The notes: generated by a model from the letters alone, not told the origin. Positions 2,355 through 49,803 are shown, counted from the stretch's first letter. The stretch is 64,000 nt of DNA from an uncultured virus (IMG/VR IMGVR_UViG_3300031420_000005) (IMGVR_UViG_3300031420_000005); one strand, 5' to 3'. Numbers and translations are program-made.

Positions 2355-3107
2355 TCAGTGGTGGTAGTCGAAGGCCACGAGGTAGCCGTGGACCTTGGCG
2401 TTGGCCTTGGGCTTCTCGGTGGTGACCTTGAAGGAGGCGGTGGCGCTCTCGGGCTCGGGTCGGCTGATGGTGACCAGGGCGGTGCTGCCGGTGTCCCGCT
2501 GGATGAAGGCCTCCACCGCGAGGCTGGAGACCTGAGGGTTGTTGTTCATGTGCTCCACGGCTGCAGCCCGGGCTGCTGCCTGGCTGGGGTAGGGCATGCT
2601 CAGGGTGCTGTGCTCCTCCTGACCCCAGGGCTTCTCGAAGGGCCGGCCCCGGTGATCGGTGATTCGGTAGCTCGTCACTGCCTTGCCGGGGGTGGCTTCG
2701 GCCCGGGGTGCTCGCAGCTTGGGGAGGCTGTCGATCTCGATCTTCACGGCATCCTCGCCGAAGCGGCCCGCGTCGAGGAGCTCCCAGATGGAGTTCCGGC
2801 GGAGCTCCTTGAGCTCCTTGGCCGTGACCTGGAGCCGGAGGGTGGTGGTCTTCTCGGCGTAGTCGTCGGTGAGGGGGATGATCTTGGAGACACCGTCGCT
2901 GATGGTGCCGGCCTTGTAGATGGCGCGTTCTGCCGTCTCCCGGCTCATCAGGGGACTGAAGCCCGGGGAGCCTGCCCGGGCGTCGGACCAGCGCTCGGCC
3001 TCCTCATCATGCCACTTGGAGATCGCCGCGCCCATGACGCTGGAGGCGGTGACCTTCTCGGGGAGTTCGTCGAGGCTGAGGTGGATGATTGCGGTTGCGT
3101 GGCCCAT
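2355..3107 (-). CDS. hypothetical protein
   Basis: 250-aa ORF with own leaderless promoter. Confidence 0.85.
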   Translation of the reverse strand: MGHATAIIHLSLDELPEKVTASSVMGAAISKWHDEEAERWSDARAGSPGFSPLMSRETAERAIYKAGTISDGVSKIIPLTDDYAEKTTTLRLQVTAKELKELRRNSIWELLDAGRFGEDAVKIEIDSLPKLRAPRAEATPGKAVTSYRITDHRGRPFEKPWGQEEHSTLSMPYPSQAAARAAAVEHMNNNPQVSSLAVEAFIQRDTGSTALVTISRPEPESATASFKVTTEKPKANAKVHGYLVAFDYHH

Positions 3108-7326: not shown

Positions 7327-7638
7327 TCAGTGCCCCTCGAAGATCTCCACGGAGTGAGTGACTCGGACTCCCAGGGCGTGGGCGTAGCGGCGCACAGTGG
7401 CGAGCGTGACACCGCGCTGCTGGTTGCCCTCGAAGGCTCGGACGAAGTCCACGGAGATCCCCAGCCTCTGGGCAAGCTCTTCCTCGGTGATCCCCTGCTG
7501 GATGCGGGCACCCTTGAGGCTGCGGATGAGGTCGGTGTCGGCCAGGGCGAGCTCGTAGGCGAGGATCTCAGCCGGTGTGATCCCCTCGAGGAAGTTCTCC
7601 TCGGAGCTCCCGGCGGGGCTGTCTGCAGCTGTGCTCAT
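7327..7638 (-). CDS. XRE-family helix-turn-helix regulator
   Basis: LKGARIQQGITEEELAQRLGISVDFVRAFEGN...TLATVRRYAHALG. Confidence 0.85.
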   Translation of the reverse strand: MSTAADSPAGSSEENFLEGITPAEILAYELALADTDLIRSLKGARIQQGITEEELAQRLGISVDFVRAFEGNQQRGVTLATVRRYAHALGVRVTHSVEIFEGH

Positions 7639-38290: not shown

Positions 38291-38635
38291 ATGAGCAGCG
38301 ACAACTACTACACCGTTCGCGAGAACCCCGAGGACGGGCTCTGGTATGTCTACCACGGCTTCGCCAGCAATCTCGAGGATGGCTTCCCCGCCACGAGCGT
38401 GCGCTCGGAGGGCTTCGAGACCGCTGAGGAGGCCGTGGACTTCTACGACCGTCAGCCCCAGGGCTTCATGGAGTCCTACTACTCTGAGTACGGACTCATG
38501 GCTGAGCCTGCCGACGATGAGCTCCGGGATCTTCGCATCGGCAACTTCAGGCGCTGGCCCGAGGATCTCGACGAGGACTGGGCAGCTCCCTACCGGGAAG
38601 AGACCTACGCCCTGGCTCCCGAGCTTCGGCGCTGA
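38291..38635 (+). CDS. hypothetical acidic protein
   Basis: AAGGA RBS. Confidence 0.75.
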   Translation: MSSDNYYTVRENPEDGLWYVYHGFASNLEDGFPATSVRSEGFETAEEAVDFYDRQPQGFMESYYSEYGLMAEPADDELRDLRIGNFRRWPEDLDEDWAAPYREETYALAPELRR

Positions 38636-38675
38636 ACAGCCCCGGCAGAGCACAGATCCGAGAGCGCAGCGACAG

Positions 38676-39245
38676 ATGACCACAGAGCCCTGGAAGACAG
38701 AGACCCGGCGAGAGATTCCCGAGGGGACCTACTCGATCTCCCTGACGGGCCACCGGCCTGCAGCCCTCGACGGCTACGATCTGTCGACCCCTTTCTACAG
38801 GAAGCTCGAGGCTGGACTCCATCGCATCGTCGAGCGTGCCCTGGAGCGCTATGGGGCAGTACAGCTCCACTCGGGTATGGCTCTGGGAGCCGACACCGTC
38901 TGGTCTAAGGCTGCCCTACGGCTTCGCGATGAGCACCCCGATGAGGTCTTCTTCGTCGCGGAGGTGCCAGTCCTGACGCAGCCCGACCGCTGGGTGGGCA
39001 CGAAGGACAAGAAACTCTGGCAGGACCATGTGGACAGTGCGGACATGCTGCGAGTCTACGGAGAGTCCTACTCGGTGGGCTTCCTCCATGCTCGGAACCA
39101 AGGCATGATCGAGGCGGCGGATCTCCTCCTCGCCGTCTGGAACGGATCCAATAGCGGTGGCACCGCGGGCGCCGTGCGCTACGCTGAGAAGATCGGAAAG
39201 CGAACCCATCGCATCGATCCCGACGAACTCAAAGCTAGGGTCTGA
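38676..39245 (+). CDS. YspA/DUF1273-like SLOG-superfamily nucleotide-binding protein
   Basis: TGHRP...SGMALGAD...ARNQGMIE.AD.LLAVWNG...GGT...VRYA. Confidence 0.85.
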   Translation: MTTEPWKTETRREIPEGTYSISLTGHRPAALDGYDLSTPFYRKLEAGLHRIVERALERYGAVQLHSGMALGADTVWSKAALRLRDEHPDEVFFVAEVPVLTQPDRWVGTKDKKLWQDHVDSADMLRVYGESYSVGFLHARNQGMIEAADLLLAVWNGSNSGGTAGAVRYAEKIGKRTHRIDPDELKARV

Positions 39246-39254
39246 GAACAGCTC

Positions 39255-39674
39255 CTAGCGCCGCTGAGTGGCAACTCCGCTGTCCTCTTCGACCTCATCC
39301 CAGCCGAAGATCTTGCCGATACCGAGGATGAAGACTGCACCCGTGGGGATGAGGAGCCAGGCCAGTCCCGGAAAGAACAGTGACCCACCGATGAGCAGCG
39401 CGACGATGGCCGCAGCCGACTGAATCGAAGCCACGACGACACTGGCGAACTCCAGGTGGGGCTCGACGGACTTCCGCTTAGAGTTGGATCGGGGGAATCC
39501 CAAAACGAGCAACAGCAGCGATCCAGCGAACATCCCTAGGCCGATGAGCACAAGGATGCCCGGCCGGCCGTCGTAGATGTCATAGGTCTCACGGACCGAA
39601 GCGTGGTAGATCGAGAACAGGATCAGCATGATCCCGAGTGTCGTGCCGGAGAAGCCGTAGATGGTGCTACGCAT
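39255..39674 (-). CDS. multi-pass membrane protein
   Basis: Four hydrophobic segments; TTGCGC promoter with ACACCAC leader. Confidence 0.75.
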   Translation of the reverse strand: MRSTIYGFSGTTLGIMLILFSIYHASVRETYDIYDGRPGILVLIGLGMFAGSLLLLVLGFPRSNSKRKSVEPHLEFASVVVASIQSAAAIVALLIGGSLFFPGLAWLLIPTGAVFILGIGKIFGWDEVEEDSGVATQRR

Positions 39675-39756
39675 GGGGGCGTACTCCTAAGTTTCAAGCA
39701 GTAGTGTGGTGTGGAACCAACCTACACCGGAAACCCAATCAGCGCAACGGGTAGCG

Positions 39757-39975
39757 CTAGCGATCTTCACGAAGGCTGCTGCGGAGACTCCTACCGGCTG
39801 CCTCCACCGCTGCGCCGATGCCGAGAACGATGAGAGCCATGGCGATGAGCACGAAGGCTGAGGCTACGGCAGTCAGGGCGAGGAAGATTCCGTAGATCAG
39901 GAGAGCTGCTCCCAGGATGAGCACAGTTGTGGCCGTTCCCGTGAGGCGCCACTTGGGCTGTCGGTTACTAGCCAT
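39757..39975 (-). CDS. small 2-TM membrane protein
   Basis: AGGAG RBS; hydrophobic. Confidence 0.7.
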   Translation of the reverse strand: MASNRQPKWRLTGTATTVLILGAALLIYGIFLALTAVASAFVLIAMALIVLGIGAAVEAAGRSLRSSLREDR

Positions 39976-40002
39976 GGGAATCTCCTGAATCCTTGAAGTG
40001 TG

Positions 40003-40110
40003 ACCGATCCGGCGACGAGGCTGAGTCCAAACATCCCAGCTGGGGAGGCGCGCCCGACGCAGCCAGCGCGCTCAGCCTCGTTCCTACCTGCCGCTTCGGG
40101 CCGGATCGGT
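40003..40110 (-). ncRNA. structured 3'-flank element, copy 1
   Basis: Homologous to 41304-41398 and 45972-46064; covarying stems. Confidence 0.6.
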
Positions 40111-40141
40111 GGTCTCTGTGTAGTTGATCGTACCGCAGTCC

Positions 40142-40834
40142 CTAGACCTGCGCCGGAGCGAACTGAGTCCAGAACTTCGGCACGAAGATCGGGGTCGCGG
40201 CTCCCATCCGGCGGCCGATCCCCGGAGCGGTGTTGGTGGAGACCTGCTCCCACTCGACGATGGAGGTCCAGTCGCCGTTGACCTCACCCACGGTCCAGAT
40301 CGCTCCACCGAGCCGATCACCGTCGAGGCGGATCTGGACCTGCAGTCCCTCGGTCACCCGCGGATAGGCCGGCACGAAGTGGTTCCAGAAGTCGCTGAGG
40401 AAGATCGGGGTCACGCCGTACATGCGCTGGCGGATCCGCTCGTTCTCCCACTCTGCGATGAGTGCCCAGCCCTCCTGGCGCTTGGTGCTGGGAATGGCGT
40501 CCTTCACCGTGAGAAGCTCATCCTGGATCTTCCCATCGATGATCCGGTAGACCTTGAGCCCTTCGCTGATCTCCGGCGCGGGCTCGAAGTCGTTCCAGAG
40601 GTCCTTGAGATGGATCACGGATCGGAGGTGCTTCGGGTTGAGCTCCAGCTCTTCCTCGACGATGATCGTCCAAGGGCCGCTGAGCTTGCCGCCGGGGAGG
40701 GTCTTTCCCAGGGTGACGACAGGTGAGACGCCGTCTGCGTTGGAGGTGATCCTGCGGACCTTGAGGCCCTCGATGATCTCTGGGTAGCCCGGCTGGGAGA
40801 TCTCCGGAGCGCTGATGGTCTGTGTGGTGTCCAT
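40142..40834 (-). CDS. protein of three tandem ~70-aa SH3/Tudor-like repeats
   Basis: P.I.EGL.V...W..I.E.E...I.L...W..F.PA repeated three times. Confidence 0.8.
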   Translation of the reverse strand: MDTTQTISAPEISQPGYPEIIEGLKVRRITSNADGVSPVVTLGKTLPGGKLSGPWTIIVEEELELNPKHLRSVIHLKDLWNDFEPAPEISEGLKVYRIIDGKIQDELLTVKDAIPSTKRQEGWALIAEWENERIRQRMYGVTPIFLSDFWNHFVPAYPRVTEGLQVQIRLDGDRLGGAIWTVGEVNGDWTSIVEWEQVSTNTAPGIGRRMGAATPIFVPKFWTQFAPAQV

Positions 40835-40863
40835 GGGGCAATCGTACATCATGGACTACGAGG

Positions 40864-41235
40864 TCACAACCGCCTGCGACGCTCCTCGTCCCTGTTCGCT
40901 GAGTTGATGATGTAGATGGCTCCGATCACCGCAAGCGTGAGAAGAGATCCGCCGATCAGGAACACGAGAGCAAGGCCCCGATCAAGGAACATGAGGACGC
41001 CACCCAGGACTAGGAGCGAAATCCCCGAGGAGAGGAAAACCTGAGCGAAGGTTCCGTAGCGCTCCCGGAACCCCTGCCGACGCTTAGGGCTAGTCGCCGG
41101 TTCATCGGCGGCCAGCTCAAGGGCTCGCCTACGAAGCCAGGCCTTGCGCTCGTCGGAAACGGGTCTGGAGTTGGCTCCCAGGGAAATCGCCTGTGAACGG
41201 AGCCACTCACGGCGTCGAGGATCGGTAGCGTGCAT
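40864..41235 (-). CDS. membrane protein with duplicated R.WLR..A..L N-terminal motif
   Basis: TTGTGG-17-TACGAT promoter; two C-terminal TM helices. Confidence 0.75.
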   Translation of the reverse strand: MHATDPRRREWLRSQAISLGANSRPVSDERKAWLRRRALELAADEPATSPKRRQGFRERYGTFAQVFLSSGISLLVLGGVLMFLDRGLALVFLIGGSLLTLAVIGAIYIINSANRDEERRRRL

Positions 41236-41303
41236 GGGTCAATCGTACACCCTAGACCTCATTGCCACAACACTACGGCCCTCGAGATCAGCACCTTCGT
41301 AGG

Positions 41304-41398
41304 ACCGATCCGGCGACTGGGTCGAGGCAAACACGGTGCGCCCAGCCAGGCCAGCGCAATCGACTCAGTTCTCACCTGCCTGTTCAGGCCGGATCGGT
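41304..41398 (-). ncRNA. structured 3'-flank element, copy 2
   Basis: See copy 1. Confidence 0.6.
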
Positions 41399-41414
41399 GG
41401 TCTTGGGCTGGAGC

Positions 41415-41804
41415 TCAGCCCAGCATCACCAGGGGAAGGAGCTTCTCGGTGAGCTCCAGGGTGCGTTCCGGAGCGAGGCCGATGAGGTCCCAGTAGAAGC
41501 TCACCGGGAGCTCCGGGTGGTTGCCGCTCCAGGCCACCAGGGTCTCGACGAGCTCATCCACGATCTCGTTGGTGATCCCGTCGATGTCCTCGATGACCAC
41601 GACGGTGGGGCGCCGCACGGCATCGATGTTGAACTCGAGGCTGCCATTCTCGATGAAGTCGAAGCTGCTGGACTTGCCGGTGAGCTCGAGCGCATCCGAA
41701 GCGAAGCGTGCGATGAGCCGGGAGTCCTTGGCGAGGGCTCCCTCCTGGATGTCGTTGAGGAGACCTTGTCCCCGGGCGCCGATGATCAGTGCGTGAGTGG
41801 TCAT
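41415..41804 (-). CDS. hypothetical protein
   Basis: TTGCGG-17-TAGGAT leaderless promoter. Confidence 0.8.
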   Translation of the reverse strand: MTTHALIIGARGQGLLNDIQEGALAKDSRLIARFASDALELTGKSSSFDFIENGSLEFNIDAVRRPTVVVIEDIDGITNEIVDELVETLVAWSGNHPELPVSFYWDLIGLAPERTLELTEKLLPLVMLG

Positions 41805-41842
41805 GGGAGGATCCTATCCTACTCGCAGAGATTCCGCAACGC

Positions 41843-42109
41843 TCAGAGAGCGAAGGCCTCGATGCGCTCCAGCGCCGCTCGGCCTCGCTCACCCTGGGTG
41901 ACCTCAGCGCGAACCTCGGCGTAGGCCTCCTCCACGGAGAGGCCTCGCTTCGTGCCCTTGCTGGTGCCCTCGAGGATCGAGTTGCAGGTCACGATGGTCA
42001 CATAGGCCTCGCCGAGCTCGTCCGGGTTCATCTGCTTCCGGGGCTTCGGGAACTTCGTGGCCTTCTTGGTCATGGCGACGATCTCTGCGGCGGTCTGCGG
42101 CTTGAACAT
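41843..42109 (-). CDS. hypothetical protein (MFKPQTAAE...)
   Basis: TTGCGC promoter, ACACCAC leader, AGGA RBS. Confidence 0.75.
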   Translation of the reverse strand: MFKPQTAAEIVAMTKKATKFPKPRKQMNPDELGEAYVTIVTCNSILEGTSKGTKRGLSVEEAYAEVRAEVTQGERGRAALERIEAFAL

Positions 42110-42208
42110 GGGAAGCTCTTTCCTGCTCAGCGCTCCCATCGGATGAGGAGGGAGCGAAGTTCGTGGTGTGAGATTCACTGTACACGGCCGAGCGCAGCCG
42201 CGCAACGG

Positions 42209-42523
42209 TCAGCCGATGCGACCTTCAGCGACCATGAGCTCCTCGAGCTCACCATTGATGGCGATGCACTCCTCGATGGAGACGATCTCGTGGCCTTCCC
42301 GGATGCCCAGCATGGCCCGGCTCACCGGTTCGCCGCTGTGATCTCGACGGAGGTAGAGGCTGACCTCATTGTGAAGGTCGAGGTAGCGAGCCAGCGTGGG
42401 ACCGCTAAACACCGGATCTTCGAGTCCGTCTCGGAAGAGATCCCGGCGCTGGAGGACCTCGAGGACCTGAGGAACGATGGAGTCTTCGGCCATGGGCTTC
42501 GCTACCTGGGAATCTGCACTCAT
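42209..42523 (-). CDS. hypothetical protein (MSADSQV...)
   Basis: TTGCGG-17-TAGCAT leaderless promoter. Confidence 0.7.
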   Translation of the reverse strand: MSADSQVAKPMAEDSIVPQVLEVLQRRDLFRDGLEDPVFSGPTLARYLDLHNEVSLYLRRDHSGEPVSRAMLGIREGHEIVSIEECIAINGELEELMVAEGRIG

Positions 42524-42625
42524 AGGTCCAATGCTACATGGATCGACGGGTCCCCGCAACCGTGTTAGGATCGGAACTGACGGTCTTCCGAGCGGAGGGC
42601 CCAACCTACAGAAAGTGAGAGAGCC

Positions 42626-43471
42626 ATGGGCTCAGTTTCAGACAGTTTCAGCAGCCTTCCAGGGGCTCCGGCCGGTGCCGATTCGCAGGCCGAAGGTCGC
42701 CCGGACTTCCTCAGCGGCGAGAAGTTCAAGGAGGCCGAAGAGGCGCTCCAGGGAAGCCTCTCGGGCGCTCCCTTCGCCGCACTCCGAGTCGACGGCAAGG
42801 GCTTCTCTCGGTTCACCCGGCAGATGGGCTACGCCTTTCCCTACGACGAGGGCTTCATGGGCTCCATGGACGCCATTGCCGTGGCGCTACTCAACAGCGT
42901 AGACGGAGCCTACTTCGCCTACTCCCAGTCCGACGAGGTCTCCCTGGTCTTCGGTCCCACTGGCTCCCAGGAGGACCCCCACTGGTGGTTCGGTGGCAAG
43001 ACCTCCAAGGTGATCTCCCTGTCGGCAGCGGTTGCGAGCATGGCCTTCTTCCGGGCAGAGGCAGCTCGAGGTGTGAAGCTCGTCTCAGACGCGCTCTTCG
43101 ACTCCCGGGTGATCTCACTGCAGTCAACGCAGGAGGCTGAGGAGTACCTCCGCTGGAGGCGCTTCGACGCCCAGAAGAACAGCGTCACCATGGCCGCAAG
43201 CTCCCGCCACAGCCACTCTGAGCTCATGGGTGTGAGCAGCCGCCAGCGAGCTGAGCTCCTCGAGGGTAGCGAGCTCGAACGGCTCCCCGAGGGCTTCTAC
43301 AACGGCCGGCTCACCTTCAAGGCTGCCTACCAGGATCTCGTCTGGGACAGCTGGGCTCAGAAAGACAGCCCGGTGGAGCGCAAGCGCCCCGTCACCGTCC
43401 CCGCAACCCGGGATGTCATGGAAACCGTGCTTCCTGTGGTGCTCCGGGATCGGATCTACCGGGAACAGTGA
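42626..43471 (+). CDS. thg1: tRNA(His) guanylyltransferase Thg1-like protein (3'-5' polymerase)
   Basis: RVDGKGFSRFT...PYD...AYSQSDEVSL...FGGK..K...FDSR...YLRWR..DA.KNS. Confidence 0.92.
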   Translation: MGSVSDSFSSLPGAPAGADSQAEGRPDFLSGEKFKEAEEALQGSLSGAPFAALRVDGKGFSRFTRQMGYAFPYDEGFMGSMDAIAVALLNSVDGAYFAYSQSDEVSLVFGPTGSQEDPHWWFGGKTSKVISLSAAVASMAFFRAEAARGVKLVSDALFDSRVISLQSTQEAEEYLRWRRFDAQKNSVTMAASSRHSHSELMGVSSRQRAELLEGSELERLPEGFYNGRLTFKAAYQDLVWDSWAQKDSPVERKRPVTVPATRDVMETVLPVVLRDRIYREQ

Positions 43472-43920
43472 GGCGCTCGATATGTTCGTTAGCTTCTGCT
43501 TCGAGAGCAGAACACGACGGAAGAGAACATAGATGTCCAATCCAAACTTTCATTATGTCCGACAGCAAAAAGGACACAGTATCATTCTACATTCCTGCCT
43601 AGTCTTCGTGGTAATCGGAATGTTCACCATTCCCTACTACTCGCTTAGCAAGGCTCACTACTGGCACGCTTGAATCGGTGCAAAGCATAAGGATCTCGGT
43701 CAATCAGATCGAGATCCTTATGCTTTGTAAGGGGTCTAATAGCTTCATCGAATCTGTGAAATCGCTTCCAGCAGAGTGGTTGAACTCACATGGAGAACGC
43801 GATACTCTAGCCATAGCGCTTCTCGGAGCGCCAGGATCGAGATCCGCGGGGATCTCACCGTCGATCCCCTGGGCCTCCACCGATAGTAGGCCCAAGGACA
43901 CCACCAGGAGGAATCTTCCC

Positions 43921-45249
43921 ATGGCACAGACAAACAGGAACAGGCGCAGGCTCACGGTCGCCCTCGTGGCCACGCCCCTGATCCTCGGTGCGGTCGGCCT
44001 CACGGCCCTGCGAGCACCCGGAGCAACGGTGGAGGGCTACGGCTCGACCCCGGGGATCTCCGGAGAGGCTCCAGGCCAGGACTTCGCCGCCGCGCTCAAG
44101 GGCTTCCCCGTGAAGATCGGCGGGGAGTCCTTCACCGCCAGTGAGCTCGGCGTCAGGGCCGAGAAGATCCCCACGGTGCCCCGGGCCTGGTCCTTCGGAG
44201 ACTGGAACAGGGACTACGATGTGGTCCTCAAGGGCAGCAGCGACCGCCAGGACGCAGCGCTGTCGAAGATCAAGGGTCACAACGCTCCCGTGGATGCAAC
44301 TGTCTCCTACGACGGATCCTGGAAGGCCGTTCCCAGCCAGGCCGGCGTGAGGCTGGCTGCCGATCTTACCGCAGAGCTCACCAAGGCCATCGACAGCGGC
44401 AAGAAGTCCCTGGAGCTCTCCCTGGAGGACACGGAGCCGAAGCTCTCCACCGAGGTCGCCCAGCAGGCTGCTGACAAGCTCAACGGAGCCTCCGTGGGAG
44501 TCTACGGTGGCTCCACTGAGCTCGCTCGCCTCGACAGCGCTGAGGTTGCTCAGCTCATCACCGTGGAGGCCGACGGGGATCACTTCGTGGCCAAGCCCAA
44601 GGCCGATGCCGTGAAGGAAGTCGCTGCTGGCTACGCCACGAGCCTCAAGAAGGACCGGGTGGACGGCGATGAGATCACCGATGACAGCGGCAAGGCGCTG
44701 AAGATCATCACCCCATCCCAGAGCGGATTCACTCCGGGCTCTGCCGACGAGATCGCCTCGAAGCTCTCCGAGAGCCTCTCGGGTGTCCTCGACAGCCCTG
44801 AGATCAAGCTGGAGGTTCCCGGCAAGGCAGACGCTGCGAAGCCCAAGACCATGAACCGCACGGCGGTGGTGGACAAGTCGGACCACTACAGCTACTTCTA
44901 CGAGAACGGCAAGGAAGTCAAGCGCATTCCCTCGGCCATCGGTAAGGCCGGCCACGACACGAAGAACGGCACCTTCAAGGTCTACGCTCAGCTCGCGAGC
45001 CAGAACATGGGATCCTGTACGCCGTCGGGTGCCTTCCGGCCGGGTGGATCCTTCGACTACTGCACTGCCAATGTGCCCTATGTGTCCTACTTCAACGGGG
45101 ACCAGGGCTTCCACGGAGCCTACTGGCACAACAACTTCGGCAACCCGACCTCCAACATGAGTCACGGCTGCGTGAACCTGCCTGTGGCCGATTCCCAGTG
45201 GGTCTACAGCTTCCTCCAGGTCGGTAGCACCGTCACCGTCCGGGACTGA
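43921..45249 (+). CDS. exported L,D-transpeptidase (YkuD domain) with N-terminal peptidoglycan-binding-like region
   Basis: Signal/TM segment; GFHGAYWHNNFG...SHGCVNL catalytic motif. Confidence 0.92.
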   Translation: MAQTNRNRRRLTVALVATPLILGAVGLTALRAPGATVEGYGSTPGISGEAPGQDFAAALKGFPVKIGGESFTASELGVRAEKIPTVPRAWSFGDWNRDYDVVLKGSSDRQDAALSKIKGHNAPVDATVSYDGSWKAVPSQAGVRLAADLTAELTKAIDSGKKSLELSLEDTEPKLSTEVAQQAADKLNGASVGVYGGSTELARLDSAEVAQLITVEADGDHFVAKPKADAVKEVAAGYATSLKKDRVDGDEITDDSGKALKIITPSQSGFTPGSADEIASKLSESLSGVLDSPEIKLEVPGKADAAKPKTMNRTAVVDKSDHYSYFYENGKEVKRIPSAIGKAGHDTKNGTFKVYAQLASQNMGSCTPSGAFRPGGSFDYCTANVPYVSYFNGDQGFHGAYWHNNFGNPTSNMSHGCVNLPVADSQWVYSFLQVGSTVTVRD

Positions 45250-45267
45250 TCCACTAGCCCCAACGAA

Positions 45268-45302
45268 AGAGGGAGAGCGGCCGAATGGCTACTCTCCCTC
45301 TT
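45268..45302. terminator. hairpin terminator after L,D-transpeptidase
   Basis: AGAGGGAGAG...CTCTCCCTCTT. Confidence 0.55.
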
Positions 45303-45347
45303 GTCGTGGGGTCGATCTCTGGTTCGGGCTGATCAGCCCGGTGGGCA

Positions 45348-45542
45348 TCAGTCCTTGATCTTCTCGATGATGACTCGGTCGTTCTCGCTGTCGATGAGCT
45401 GGACGACCTCGCCGGACTCAGCGAAAGCGTAGCTCTGCTCGAACCAGTCGAAGCGCGCGTCCTCTGCGAAGTCGCTGTCCTCGCCCACGAAGATGCCGTC
45501 GGTGGTGAAGACGCGGATGAGGAAGTTGTGATCGCTGTGCAT
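45348..45542 (-). CDS. small acidic protein (MHSDHNFL...)
   Basis: TTGCAC-17-TACAGT leaderless promoter. Confidence 0.7.
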   Translation of the reverse strand: MHSDHNFLIRVFTTDGIFVGEDSDFAEDARFDWFEQSYAFAESGEVVQLIDSENDRVIIEKIKD

Positions 45543-45649
45543 GGGGCCGACTGTACACGGTACTCTAGGCTCGTGCAACCCTAGGAGCCAACCGATAGTG
45601 ACTCGTGAGCTGGATCCCATCTCACAGCGAAGTGAAAGGTGGAACGACC

Positions 45650-45937
45650 ATGACAGAAGCACAGGTGATCTACGGCCGGGAGCAGGATGAGCCTGAGGAG
45701 TACCCCTACGCCCTGGTGCTGATCTCCCGGAAGGTCTGGGAGGCCAAGTCCGAATGGTTCGACAGCTACGCGGACAGCCACTTCGTGGGGATCTACGATG
45801 AGCTCATCGGTAAGTACGAGCTCGATCCGCTCATGGAGAACACGCTCTCTGCGGACAGTGAGGAGCACTTCGAGCAGGTGCTCAAGGCCTTCGAGGCTGA
45901 TCCTCGGCTCCAGTTCGTGGAGAACATCTACGGCTGA
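45650..45937 (+). CDS. hypothetical protein (MTEAQVIY...)
   Basis: GAAAGGTG RBS. Confidence 0.75.
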   Translation: MTEAQVIYGREQDEPEEYPYALVLISRKVWEAKSEWFDSYADSHFVGIYDELIGKYELDPLMENTLSADSEEHFEQVLKAFEADPRLQFVENIYG

Positions 45938-45971
45938 GCGTAGAGACTGCTCGATGCTCTAGGATCGGGTG

Positions 45972-46064
45972 AGTTCGGGGCCTGAACAGGCAGAGAAGAA
46001 CCGAGGCGAGAGCGCTGGCCTGGCTGGGCGCTCCAGATCCCCCTCGCTTTGGTCGCCCCGGACC
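45972..46064 (+). ncRNA. structured 3'-flank element, copy 3
   Basis: GGCCTGAACAGGCAG...GAAC...GCGCTGGCCTGGCTGGGCGC...GTCGCC, same core as copy 2. Confidence 0.6.
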
Positions 46065-46190
46065 TCCTTCACCGATGAGAGCAGGAGACGCTAGAGGCTG
46101 TTCTAAGATCACAGCAAGGGAGCCCGGAGGCATGATGCGTCTCCGGGCTCCTTCGTCGTCTACGGACAGTCTGTGGTCAGTGGACGGCGA

Positions 46191-46484
46191 TCAGGCAGCG
46201 ACCTCCGAGAGGATGTGCTTCTCGTAGAGCTTTGCGGCGACGAAGCCCGCGGCCAGCATGCCATTGAGGTCCACGGCCGGTGTGTGGCTCCACTCCTTGT
46301 AGAACTTGTCGAGCTCCCGGTCGAAGGTCTTGCGCGGGAGCTTGGAGAGCTCCGGGAACTCGCCGTCGAGGGCGTCGTAGACCGTGGCGGTGGTCTGAGG
46401 GTCGAAGGTCTTCTCGTCGTAGAAAGCGTCGATCTTGTCGGCTAGGCGGTTGATGCGAGCGTAGGTCTCGAAGAGCGAAGCCAT
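46191..46484 (-). CDS. hypothetical protein
   Basis: TTGCAT-17-TATGAT promoter, ACACCAC leader, AGGAG RBS. Confidence 0.8.
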   Translation of the reverse strand: MASLFETYARINRLADKIDAFYDEKTFDPQTTATVYDALDGEFPELSKLPRKTFDRELDKFYKEWSHTPAVDLNGMLAAGFVAAKLYEKHILSEVAA

Positions 46485-46630
46485 GGGGTTCTCCTGGAAG
46501 TTCGTGGTGTGGTGGAGCGTGGTGTGGCACGATCATATGCCTCCAGCTGGCCTTATGCAACCATCTGACAGAAAGAGGTCGAGCCCGGACTTCATGGATA
46601 GAAGTCCGGGCTCGAAGCTCACAGTTGAAC

Positions 46631-48876: not shown

Positions 48877-49229
48877 GGAATCAGCTCCATGAGCCGACTG
48901 TTGAGCTCAGCGATCTGAGCTTCGGACAGGGCGCAGGCGAACTCAGGCGTCACCACGAACCGGGTCACCTGCCAGGTCCTACCGCTCCGGATCACCACAA
49001 GGGTTGCTCGAACCTTCGAGCTCTCATAGGCGTAGCGATCCACGACCTTGCCACGGCTCAGGATCAGCGGCGCGTACTTATCCCGGTCGATGATCTCGTT
49101 GTGGACAGCCACGGGATGGAGCCTATTCTCCGGGAAGAAGCCGAACTCGCTGAGGACCTCTATGGCCTTCCAGGGCACCGCTGTTCGCAGCTCCGCCTGG
49201 CTGATCTTGCGCTTGGGCTGTTCAGCCAT
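48873..49229 (-). CDS. hypothetical protein
   Basis: Overlaps exonuclease stop. Confidence 0.7.
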   Translation of the reverse strand: MAEQPKRKISQAELRTAVPWKAIEVLSEFGFFPENRLHPVAVHNEIIDRDKYAPLILSRGKVVDRYAYESSKVRATLVVIRSGRTWQVTRFVVTPEFACALSEAQIAELNSRLMELIP

Positions 49230-49803
49230 GGCTACGGACTTCCTTCACTCGCTGGGCGGGGTCACTGTCCCGGACGATGTTCTTGCTGAGGGGGTTACGG
49301 AGCACGACCTGCAGGGCGATGAGCGCGTCATCTGCGGGGTTATGGTGGTCGATGGGGATGCCGTAGCGCTCGGCCATGGTCGCCACGCCCGCCTTGCCCT
49401 GGCCTCGGCTCAGGCCGAGCTCAGCGCGAGCGATGGGCAGGGAGTTGAGCCAGGAGAGGTGGAGTGCCTCGAGCCCGTGGATGAGCTGAGCGGCCTGCCA
49501 GGATCGGCGATCCGAGGTGGTGTCGTGGGCGACGAGGATGAGCTCGACCCCATCAGCCTGGGCATCGGCGAGGAGTCCAGCGATGCGAGCGTAGAGCTGC
49601 GAGAACTCCATGCCTCCATCTGCCTGCTCCTGAGTGATCCCGTGGAAGCGCGTGTGCTCCTGACGGGGAGCGATGGCGGGGAGCTGGACGAAGCCGTGCT
49701 CCTTCGTGCCGTCCTCGAAGGCGAGACCGTAGGCGCAGATGGTGCCCTTGGTGTTGTTGCCGTACTCGAAGTCGATGCCGAGATAGCGGCGAGGAGTGGT
49801 CAT
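49222..49803 (-). CDS. DEDDh 3'-5' exonuclease (DnaQ/epsilon-like)
   Basis: GIDFE...FHGIT...LVAHD...D...HHNPADDA; TTGACA(49834-49839) promoter. Confidence 0.85.
   Translation of the reverse strand: MTTPRRYLGIDFEYGNNTKGTICAYGLAFEDGTKEHGFVQLPAIAPRQEHTRFHGITQEQADGGMEFSQLYARIAGLLADAQADGVELILVAHDTTSDRRSWQAAQLIHGLEALHLSWLNSLPIARAELGLSRGQGKAGVATMAERYGIPIDHHNPADDALIALQVVLRNPLSKNIVRDSDPAQRVKEVRSHG

Follow-up and report, generated by a model that had tools for sequence, protein, structure and literature searches.

Compact pseudoknotted RNAs of a size similar to that of the element described here are found between phage genes in the form of twister, pistol and hepatitis delta virus (HDV)-like or theta ribozymes. 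Type III antitoxins (ToxI, AbiQ, CptI) are protein-binding pseudoknot RNAs, the phage pseudo-ToxI sequences being tandem stoichiometric decoys, and RNA anti-CRISPRs are grouped with the phage decoy RNAs. Y RNAs (partners of Ro60) and 6S/Ms1 RNAs (binding RNA polymerase) are stable trans-acting RNAs with a terminal stem, patchily distributed and sometimes present in phages. Furthermore, the pertinent part of Weinberg 2017 (PMC5737381) presents FuFi-1, drum, skipping-rope and DUF3800-I as orphan structured motifs, rarely located in a 5′ untranslated region (UTR) and often followed by a terminator. The present study concerns a structured element found in a 64,000-nucleotide (nt) stretch of DNA from an uncultured virus (IMG/VR IMGVR_UViG_3300031420_000005), the whole of which is denoted the window. 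Judged by sequence comparison, the three copies of this element in the window are members of an uncatalogued family of pseudoknotted RNAs of about 95 nt, whose carriers are many unrelated actinobacterial viruses and the chromosomes of some Arthrobacter-like bacteria.

Overall fold and covariation

The three copies, termed A, B and C, are located at 40003-40110 (-), 41304-41398 (-) and 45973-46063 (+) of the window. As stated in the initial annotation, they lie downstream of stop codons and in sense orientation to unrelated genes, the distance from the same-strand stop to the first base of stem P1 being 31, 16 and 35 nt, respectively. A covariance model of the three window copies and three phage homologs, run with filters off, scores the window copies with 88-96 bits; a fourth copy was not found in the window, where the next match reaches 14.9 bits. 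The covariance-model search that had been proposed did yield further homologs in phages, metagenomes and chromosomes, and an anchored parse retained 109 copies with flanks, corresponding to 94 distinct core sequences.

The fixed fold comprises P1, an additional G-C or C-G pair, an 11-base-pair (bp) P2, a 5-bp P3 with a 12-nt loop and a 5-bp pseudoknot, while a further hairpin, P4, is optional in the linker between P3 and P2 and occurs in the chromosomal subfamily and in window copy A. Because the parse presupposes the lengths of P2 (11 bp), P3 (5 bp) and the loop (12 nt), it is blind to length variants of these parts; J2, which was free to vary, is 8 nt long in 109 of 109 copies. Exceptions are seen in the model alignment, namely two additional nucleotides in J2 of locus L474, insertions of 2-4 nt in J1 of L292, L331 and L486, and a P2 shortened by 1 nt in L573. 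The linker measures 10-46 nt, with 10 nt as the minimum in the parsed set, and the sequence of P1 is free across the family, its ends not being conserved.

In copy A, read on the minus strand, P1 (40110-40100/40013-40003) is followed by J1 (40099-40095), the 5′ strand of the pseudoknot (40094-40090), J2 (40089-40082), P2 (40081-40071/40025-40015) and P3 (40070-40066/40053-40049), which closes the 12-nt loop 40065-40054 with the pseudoknot partner 40063-40059; the 23-nt linker with the optional hairpin spans 40048-40026, and C40014 is paired to G40083. Copy B, on the same strand, is composed of P1 (41398-41388/41314-41304), J1 (41387-41383), the pseudoknot strand (41382-41378), J2 (41377-41370), P2 (41369-41359/41326-41316), P3 (41358-41354/41341-41337), the loop (41353-41342), a 10-nt linker (41336-41327) and C41315. 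The plus-strand copy C contains P1 (45973-45981/46055-46063), J1 (45982-45986), the pseudoknot strand (45987-45991), J2 (45992-45999), P2 (46000-46010/46043-46053), P3 (46011-46015/46028-46032), the loop (46016-46027), a 10-nt linker and C46054. The P1 given in the initial annotation is the outer stem that copies A and B have in common, but it does not apply to copy C with its own, different 9-bp P1. That P2 differs from copy to copy and yet stays paired was seen correctly.

On the aligned family, every helix covaries. In an alignment of 49 sequences, fitted to a pseudoknot-free model, 96.7% of the cells are paired and double changes occur in 21 of 30 pairs. The covariation score is 0.570 versus 0.178 and is reached by none of 500 shuffles, which ignore kinship; slid controls score 0.04-0.09. 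All of the 13 pairs with the strongest corrected mutual information (effective number 28.5) coincide with predicted ones, among them the junction pair and two of the pseudoknot, and a MAFFT alignment of 36 sequences leaves the picture unchanged. Covariation in so large a family lends strong support to the earlier view that the element is a dispersed RNA with a functional fold, beyond the complexity of a terminator.

Covariation between the junction and the 12-nt loop, also proposed earlier, holds for the 5-bp pseudoknot, whose pairs 1 and 2 show double changes in 26 and 19 of the 49 sequences. The 12-bp alternative helix does not hold beyond these 5 of its 12 proposed pairs: the outer pairs show one-sided changes or mismatches without compensation, and in L485 the closing pair of P3 is U-A, which would break the extended pairing. 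Similarly, all three window copies have the triplet GUC in front of the 3′ strand of P1, yet the family as a whole does not keep it. The C of GUC pairs with the penultimate base of J2 (G-C in 40 and C-G in 54 of the 94 cores), and in the Arthrobacter phage Elesar, which has the triplet GAG, the A-U pair preceding this C becomes U-A. Cleavage after GUC at a hammerhead-type site is hence not borne out, as the bases of the triplet covary as base pairs.

Eighteen positions are at least 97% conserved among the 94 cores and cluster in J1, the pseudoknot, the loop and the helix ends by the junction; seven of them lie outside the covarying helices. On the sense strand G-U pairs outnumber A-C oppositions by 293 to 21, a count with a mild bias because G-U was scored as a pair when the 3′ strand of P2 was placed, and from this excess it follows that the sense strand is the one that folds. 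The same ratio and the orientation of the element, which follows the upstream gene and not the replicon, disfavor the single-stranded DNA (ssDNA) fold or priming signal considered in the initial annotation. Folding of single sequences against shuffles gives z values of -2.2 (copy A), -2.3 (B) and -1.3 (C) for the sense strand and of -4.1, -3.3 and 0.0 for the opposite strand, which is thus the better one in A and B. The case for fold and strand rests on the family alignment and not on single-sequence energies.

Distribution of the family

Pattern scans identified true copies in ten IMG/VR contigs (L003, L004, L005, L250, L256, L259, L260, L456, L462 and L474). In the metagenome scan 36 of 103 loci are true, three of which are the window's own sequence, and in the genome scan 1 of 71, from a Geodermatophilus isolate; both scans demanded GAAC and missed the C-G variant, so that these counts are lower bounds. 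The remaining loci of the pattern scans are chance matches within genes. Among the matches listed, two loose viral patterns gave mostly noise; seven further loci came from the most relaxed viral pattern, and the model scored none of them. Using blastn, a copy was located in the cultured temperate phage Elesar (MK392368, 27630-27721, minus strand, 68.9 bits), while Gordonia phage Figliar, a cultured relative of a clade of 46-60-kb phages, has none.

Model searches were positive in 2 of 151 genomes of a class sample, 3 of 151 of an order sample and 3 of 151 of the Geodermatophilus family; the family that includes an Arthrobacter metagenome-assembled genome (MAG) was sampled twice, with 4 of 151 genomes positive each time. 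The proportion rises to 6 of 35 in the genus of genome G270 and to 59 of 151 in the genus of G010, the latter being a lower bound since 28 candidates per genome were scored in searches of more than 40 genomes; one of the 59, G718, is a weak match and probably false. Both G010 and G270 fall in the family of the Arthrobacter MAG, which we take to be the Micrococcaceae. Carrier phages range from 27-kb fragments up to a 133-kb record, and every named host is an actinobacterium, phyla outside the actinobacteria having been covered by one strict pattern scan only.

No known family is matched. Rfam 15 gives no match in the window at the gathering thresholds and none in 39900-41500 at E≤10; in 15 homolog loci at E≤1 it gives only adjoining tRNAs and their antisense noise, and none of 4227 Rfam families matches the phage or chromosomal copies. 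A description of the motif was not found in the literature, in which the supplements of PMC5737381, PMC11109978 and PMC10690425 could list it unnamed; short motif strings are absent from the supplement of PMC10085705 and from the searched part of the PMC10690425 files. With blastn, window positions 39500-46500 have no match among cultured phages, and copy B against phages and plasmids, as well as a chromosomal copy against plasmids, gave short chance matches at most.

Genomic context

A simple open reading frame (ORF) caller placed a same-strand gene upstream of 35 of 37 copies, mostly from phages and metagenomes, and no gene upstream of the other two. Of the 107 copies whose flanks were long enough, 76 begin within 63 nt of a preceding same-strand stop, at a median distance of 13-14 nt, and the 31 remaining ones include some that the filter missed. 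The reading frames of the 76 copies are distributed 29/26/21, without bias, and translational recoding was rejected on this account. The gene that follows was determined for 36 chromosomal and prophage loci: it is convergent at 25 of them and co-directional at 10, and at one there is none. The neighbors are unrelated and include genes for an ssDNA-binding protein, a helix-turn-helix (HTH) protein, an integrase, an aldo-keto reductase, a flavin monooxygenase and a glycoside hydrolase as well as tRNAs, the copy in L357 lying behind a tRNA array. An all-against-all blastp comparison of seven carrier phage records, the window and six chromosomal regions revealed no protein common to all carriers. 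Tandem arrays of two or three copies are found in L370, L364 and L291.

A strong hairpin is located within 60 nt downstream in 26 of 105 copies, compared to 10 of 105 upstream. A TANNNT box stands 3-12 nt before P1 in 15 of 107 copies, versus 6 of 108 on the control side; of the 31 copies without a detected upstream stop, six have the box 6-9 nt before P1, which would fit a start at P1. In the chromosomal loci L534, L544, L563 and L566 a promoter-like box is combined with a strong hairpin that follows the RNA within 60 nt.

The genes preceding the window copies encode hypothetical proteins of 236 (40142-40852, -), 129 (41415-41804, -) and 95 amino acids (45650-45937, +), their ORFs ending at 40142 before copy A, 41415 before copy B and 45937 before copy C; none of the three matches Pfam or PHROG. 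Between copy C and a convergent gene ending at 46191, a strong hairpin and probable terminator was read from the sequence at 46116-46153 (+); it has no U-run and is consequently not listed by a terminator scan. Sixteen nt upstream of copy A, the hexamer TANNNT at 40127-40132 (-), which recurs in the homologous locus L320, is a possible internal promoter.

Several further features were noticed next to individual copies. Directly behind the RNA of L474, at about 2585-2720 (+), lies a 140-nt sequence with a tRNA-like 5′ end and T-arm and a long insert, which is called neither by ARAGORN at default nor by Rfam. In L519 (1427-1500) and L527 a decayed tRNA-Pro abuts P1 upstream of the RNA, with shorter remnants in L518 and L522; this may be where the element that introduced the RNA once integrated. 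L003, L004, L005, L259 and related loci have a conserved small hairpin 20-45 nt downstream of the RNA which masks the Shine-Dalgarno sequence of the ssDNA-binding-protein gene. In L482, L545 and L546 the RNA faces tRNA-Thr and lies behind a gene whose translation, judged by eye, is CsrA-like. The annotated stop of Elesar gene 32 (L444 3764-4009, +) falls inside J1 of the RNA, so that the coding sequence overlaps P1.

Chromosomal copies and their origin

The RNA is present once in 57 and twice in 2 of the 59 positive genomes. It is retained in 37 of 42 genomes with a clade-marker gene, at varying positions; as it often adjoins this gene or lies within about 10 kb of it, the chromosomal sites are not all independent. 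No copy was found in the other five clade-marker genomes, and in two of them (L590, L591) the same flanking genes enclose a short, empty spacer. DNA searches for empty sites in ten RNA-negative genomes found nothing because these genomes lack the locus. The commonest chromosomal site (L521) is flanked by a gene for an 82-amino-acid acidic protein (1644-1892, -), present in 42 of the 151 genomes of the genus, and by a convergent gene for a 54-amino-acid protein (1317-1481, +), neither protein having a Pfam match.

Phage and prophage copies are more diverse than chromosomal ones, with mean core identities of 0.69 (43 cores) and 0.89 (51 cores), respectively. In a midpoint-rooted FastTree phylogeny of the 94 cores the chromosomal copies group, without support at that node, with Elesar and two prophage-type copies. 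The RNA probably passed from phages to the host clade.

Proposed function and alternative explanations

Comparison of the copies establishes the fold, the strand and the fixed lengths and shows that the carriers include lytic, temperate and very large phage-like replicons as well as a host clade. As to function, we tentatively favor, with a likelihood just short of an even chance, a free-standing and stable small RNA, about 90-110 nt in length, which would act in trans on a conserved actinobacterial protein via its fixed pseudoknotted surface. Such an RNA would need transcription only and could sit behind any expressed gene or its own promoter. Nucleases would trim the transcript to the P1 stem and release a decay-resistant RNA, in which P3 and the pseudoknot helix would pack beside P1/P2 and the invariant junction and loop bases would present a single binding face. 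The least certain steps are that a host RNA-handling partner (a defence RNase or toxin, a degradosome nuclease or RNA polymerase) would be titrated by the RNA as a decoy, that the dose would be raised by extra and tandem copies in very large replicons, and that a prophage-borne variant would have been retained by the Arthrobacter-like clade.

A compact surface and transcription are conserved while neighbors, frame, P1 and linker are free, which fits an RNA working away from its locus, and the existence of chromosomal copies favors a free trans-acting RNA. The same reading is in agreement with the indifference to downstream context (convergent next genes in most chromosomal and prophage loci, unrelated phage neighbors, tRNAs in front of the L357 copy), with L534, L544, L563 and L566, which resemble whole transcription units, with the single copy in nearly all positive genomes and its retention in the clade, with the tandem arrays and the missing common protein, and with the greater diversity of phage and prophage copies, Elesar and prophage copies being the nearest relatives of the chromosomal ones. 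Several observations weigh against it. Taken over all copies the promoter signal is weak, and kinship among the boxed copies means that they do not count independently. The 76 copies right behind a stop codon are equally compatible with a role in cis. Ro60/TROVE occurs in 2 of 151 genomes, neither of them RNA-positive, and DUF3800 in 12 of 151, of which four are on the RNA-positive list, one of these being a doubtful weak match. The RNA is dispensable, as seen from the empty spacers of L590 and L591. Finally, the node joining the chromosomal copies has a support of 0.0 (parent node 0.846), because of which the phage-to-host direction is weak.

Invariant bases of J1, J2 and the loop, joined by the pseudoknot, would also form the active site of a new small self-cleaving ribozyme class, cutting phage and host transcripts behind the stop codon and thereby separating cistrons or altering stability. 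A compact pseudoknotted fold with fixed helix lengths, a terminal stem of free length and an optional peripheral hairpin, conserved positions of which seven lie outside covarying helices, and a sporadic, multi-copy and tandem occurrence amid unrelated phage genes all suit this explanation, as do the mRNA-processing roles that the relevant section of PMC6765202 proposes for bacterial hammerheads and twisters located near phage genes. We nevertheless regard it as rather unlikely. A known catalytic core is absent and GUC covaries as base pairs; no Rfam ribozyme was matched in 406,577 bases of carrier phage sequence (only tRNAs) or in the window, which is weak evidence; and the length of 90-110 nt exceeds the 50-80 nt expected in the corresponding part of Eckert 2023 (PMC10085705). 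Units with a promoter-like box and a downstream hairpin would gain nothing by cutting themselves, and in the part of Weinberg 2017 (PMC5737381) that bears on this point a downstream terminator is argued to be at odds with self-cleavage, of which none was found in three such motifs. The close spacing to stop codons, the excess of strong hairpins downstream and the observation that the element stays at the end of a unit while the preceding gene changes (L274 and L327 versus the window and L333) would instead suit a cis-acting 3′-end module, that is a nuclease roadblock or ribosome-facing structure protecting or processing the upstream mRNA. This is improbable in view of copies without an upstream same-strand gene, behind tRNAs or in tandem, of unrelated upstream genes and of the lack of frame bias; moreover, a 3′ roadblock has no obvious need of 18 invariant bases or of a single copy per chromosome.

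The frequent position directly before a terminator-like hairpin (Elesar, L331, L352, L462), or before the ssDNA-binding-protein gene in the 46-60-kb phage clade, is what a put-like antitermination RNA riding RNA polymerase through downstream terminators would show; as the next gene is convergent in 25 of the 36 chromosomal and prophage loci and behind copy C, where read-through would produce only antisense RNA, such a function appears very improbable. Presence or absence at the same chromosomal site, the occupation of several sites and the L519 and L527 copies directly behind a decayed tRNA-Pro, as expected near an integration site, could point to a small mobile or ssDNA element, similar to repetitive extragenic palindromic (REP) sequences or miniature inverted-repeat transposable elements (MITEs) or serving as a priming signal. 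The nearly always single copy per chromosome, the unconserved P1 ends, the excess of G-U over A-C, the lack of a transposase or nuclease gene in common and the absence of any target-site duplication when the empty sites and window copies A and B were inspected visually make this a remote explanation. A riboswitch or other 5′ leader of the next gene, to which the conservation resembling a ligand pocket and the many phage copies 33-50 nt before a start codon might be attributed, has an almost negligible likelihood and is already largely refuted by context, the downstream genes being unrelated, absent or convergent and an expression platform lacking.

Well-supported new classes of structured RNA as complex as ribozymes are seldom found, and the present one lends itself to direct tests: it is carried by a cultured phage, Elesar, whose laboratory host is harmless, and by many Arthrobacter-like genomes. 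Cleavage would add one more ribozyme class. A trans-acting decoy would be an RNA-only phage-host interaction factor common to lytic, temperate and very large phage-like replicons and an example of a host keeping a phage RNA. Either outcome informs what small structured RNAs between phage genes do.

The window replicon

The window has a GC content of 62.5% and carries a series of small hypothetical genes; of the 34 proteins compared with Pfam, five gave a match, namely Thg1, an L,D-transpeptidase, a SLOG protein, an exonuclease and an HTH protein, and no tRNA was found in the window. We infer that it belongs to a very large phage-like replicon of actinobacteria, either a phage or another giant element. 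A Thg1-like tRNA-His guanylyltransferase is encoded between copies B and C at 42626-43471 (+); relatives of it occur on contigs as long as 856 kb, a hint that giant actinobacterial elements equipped with tRNA repair genes form a family. Metagenome contigs of 674 and 727 kb carry related copies of the RNA (L327, L370, L352). The L,D-transpeptidase (YkuD, 43921-45249, +) of this phage-like replicon has a predicted N-terminal membrane anchor. No relative of it was found in the viral contigs searched; in L274 and L327 the RNA element stands directly 3′ of a YkuD gene. The remaining matches are the SLOG-family protein at 38517-39245 (+), the DEDDh-type exonuclease at 49222-49803 (-) and the HTH protein at 7327-7638 (-).

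Copies A and B bracket a two-gene cassette (40003-41398, -) which is replaced by three genes in L320 and absent in L334, and the two copies may be recombination points for gene gain and loss. Within this region a promoter-like motif containing TACGAT is repeated 6-7 nt before ATG, at about 41235-41250 and 40840-40860 (-), which suggests leaderless transcription of accessory genes.

Comparison with known RNAs

The hammerhead ribozyme resembles the window copies superficially, by a CUGA-like stretch after the first stem and a GUC before its partner strand. According to the portion of PMC10085705 dealing with its core, conserved blocks are CUGAnGA between stems I and II and GAAA between stems II and III. 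Neither block occurs in the family: J1 reads C-N-G-A-A, with U in 52, G in 32 and C in 10 of the 94 cores at the second position, and continues into the pseudoknot strand; J2 ends in G-A or C-A, the G or C being paired to the single base on the 3′ side. The would-be cleavage base is thus paired and not unpaired as in the hammerhead, and GUC gives way to GUG, GAG or other triplets by compensatory change.

In contrast to twister, pistol and HDV-like ribozymes, as their topologies are generally known, the family has a different strand order, with the pseudoknot partner on the 5′ side of the P1/P2 junction, and an 11-bp P2; unlike these and theta ribozymes, it has no Rfam match, and few of its copies adjoin tRNA 3′ ends. 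Y RNA was rejected, neither of the two Ro60/TROVE-encoding genomes carrying the RNA; the family differs from Y RNA and Ms1 by the lack of tRNA-like arms (ARAGORN, Rfam) and is much shorter than Ms1. The many copies, conserved ends and target-site duplication of REP- or MITE-type repeats are all unsupported, and the copies are not located in 5′ UTRs of functionally related genes, as those of a riboswitch would be.

By analogy, the family may work like type III antitoxins and decoy RNAs, from which it is set apart by being two to three times longer and multi-helical, by tandem copies in few loci only, by copies that diverge with covariation and by having no evident adjacent toxin gene; no neighboring gene is common to the copies compared. 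The nearest described kind are the orphan motifs of Weinberg 2017 (PMC5737381), equally small RNAs of riboswitch- or ribozyme-like complexity. The present family differs in having neither an Rfam match nor a tie to DUF3800 or another neighboring protein, a DUF3800 partner being rejected because none of the four DUF3800-encoding genomes on the RNA-positive list has the gene at the RNA's position on the contig; furthermore, its occurrence in the sequences searched is confined to actinobacteria, phages infecting them and related metagenome contigs, and most copies lie 3′ of a stop codon. We rate it as somewhat less than an even chance that the family is a structurally new class of catalytic or decoy RNA. 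It would then be either a new natural self-cleaving ribozyme class, with a topology unlike that of hammerhead, twister, pistol and HDV ribozymes, or a pseudoknot RNA that arose in phages, neutralizes a defence or RNA-processing protein conserved in actinobacteria and was adopted by much of one genus as a chromosomal gene present once. We consider the fold new but of a general kind already known, and there is a real chance that the family constitutes a new functional class.

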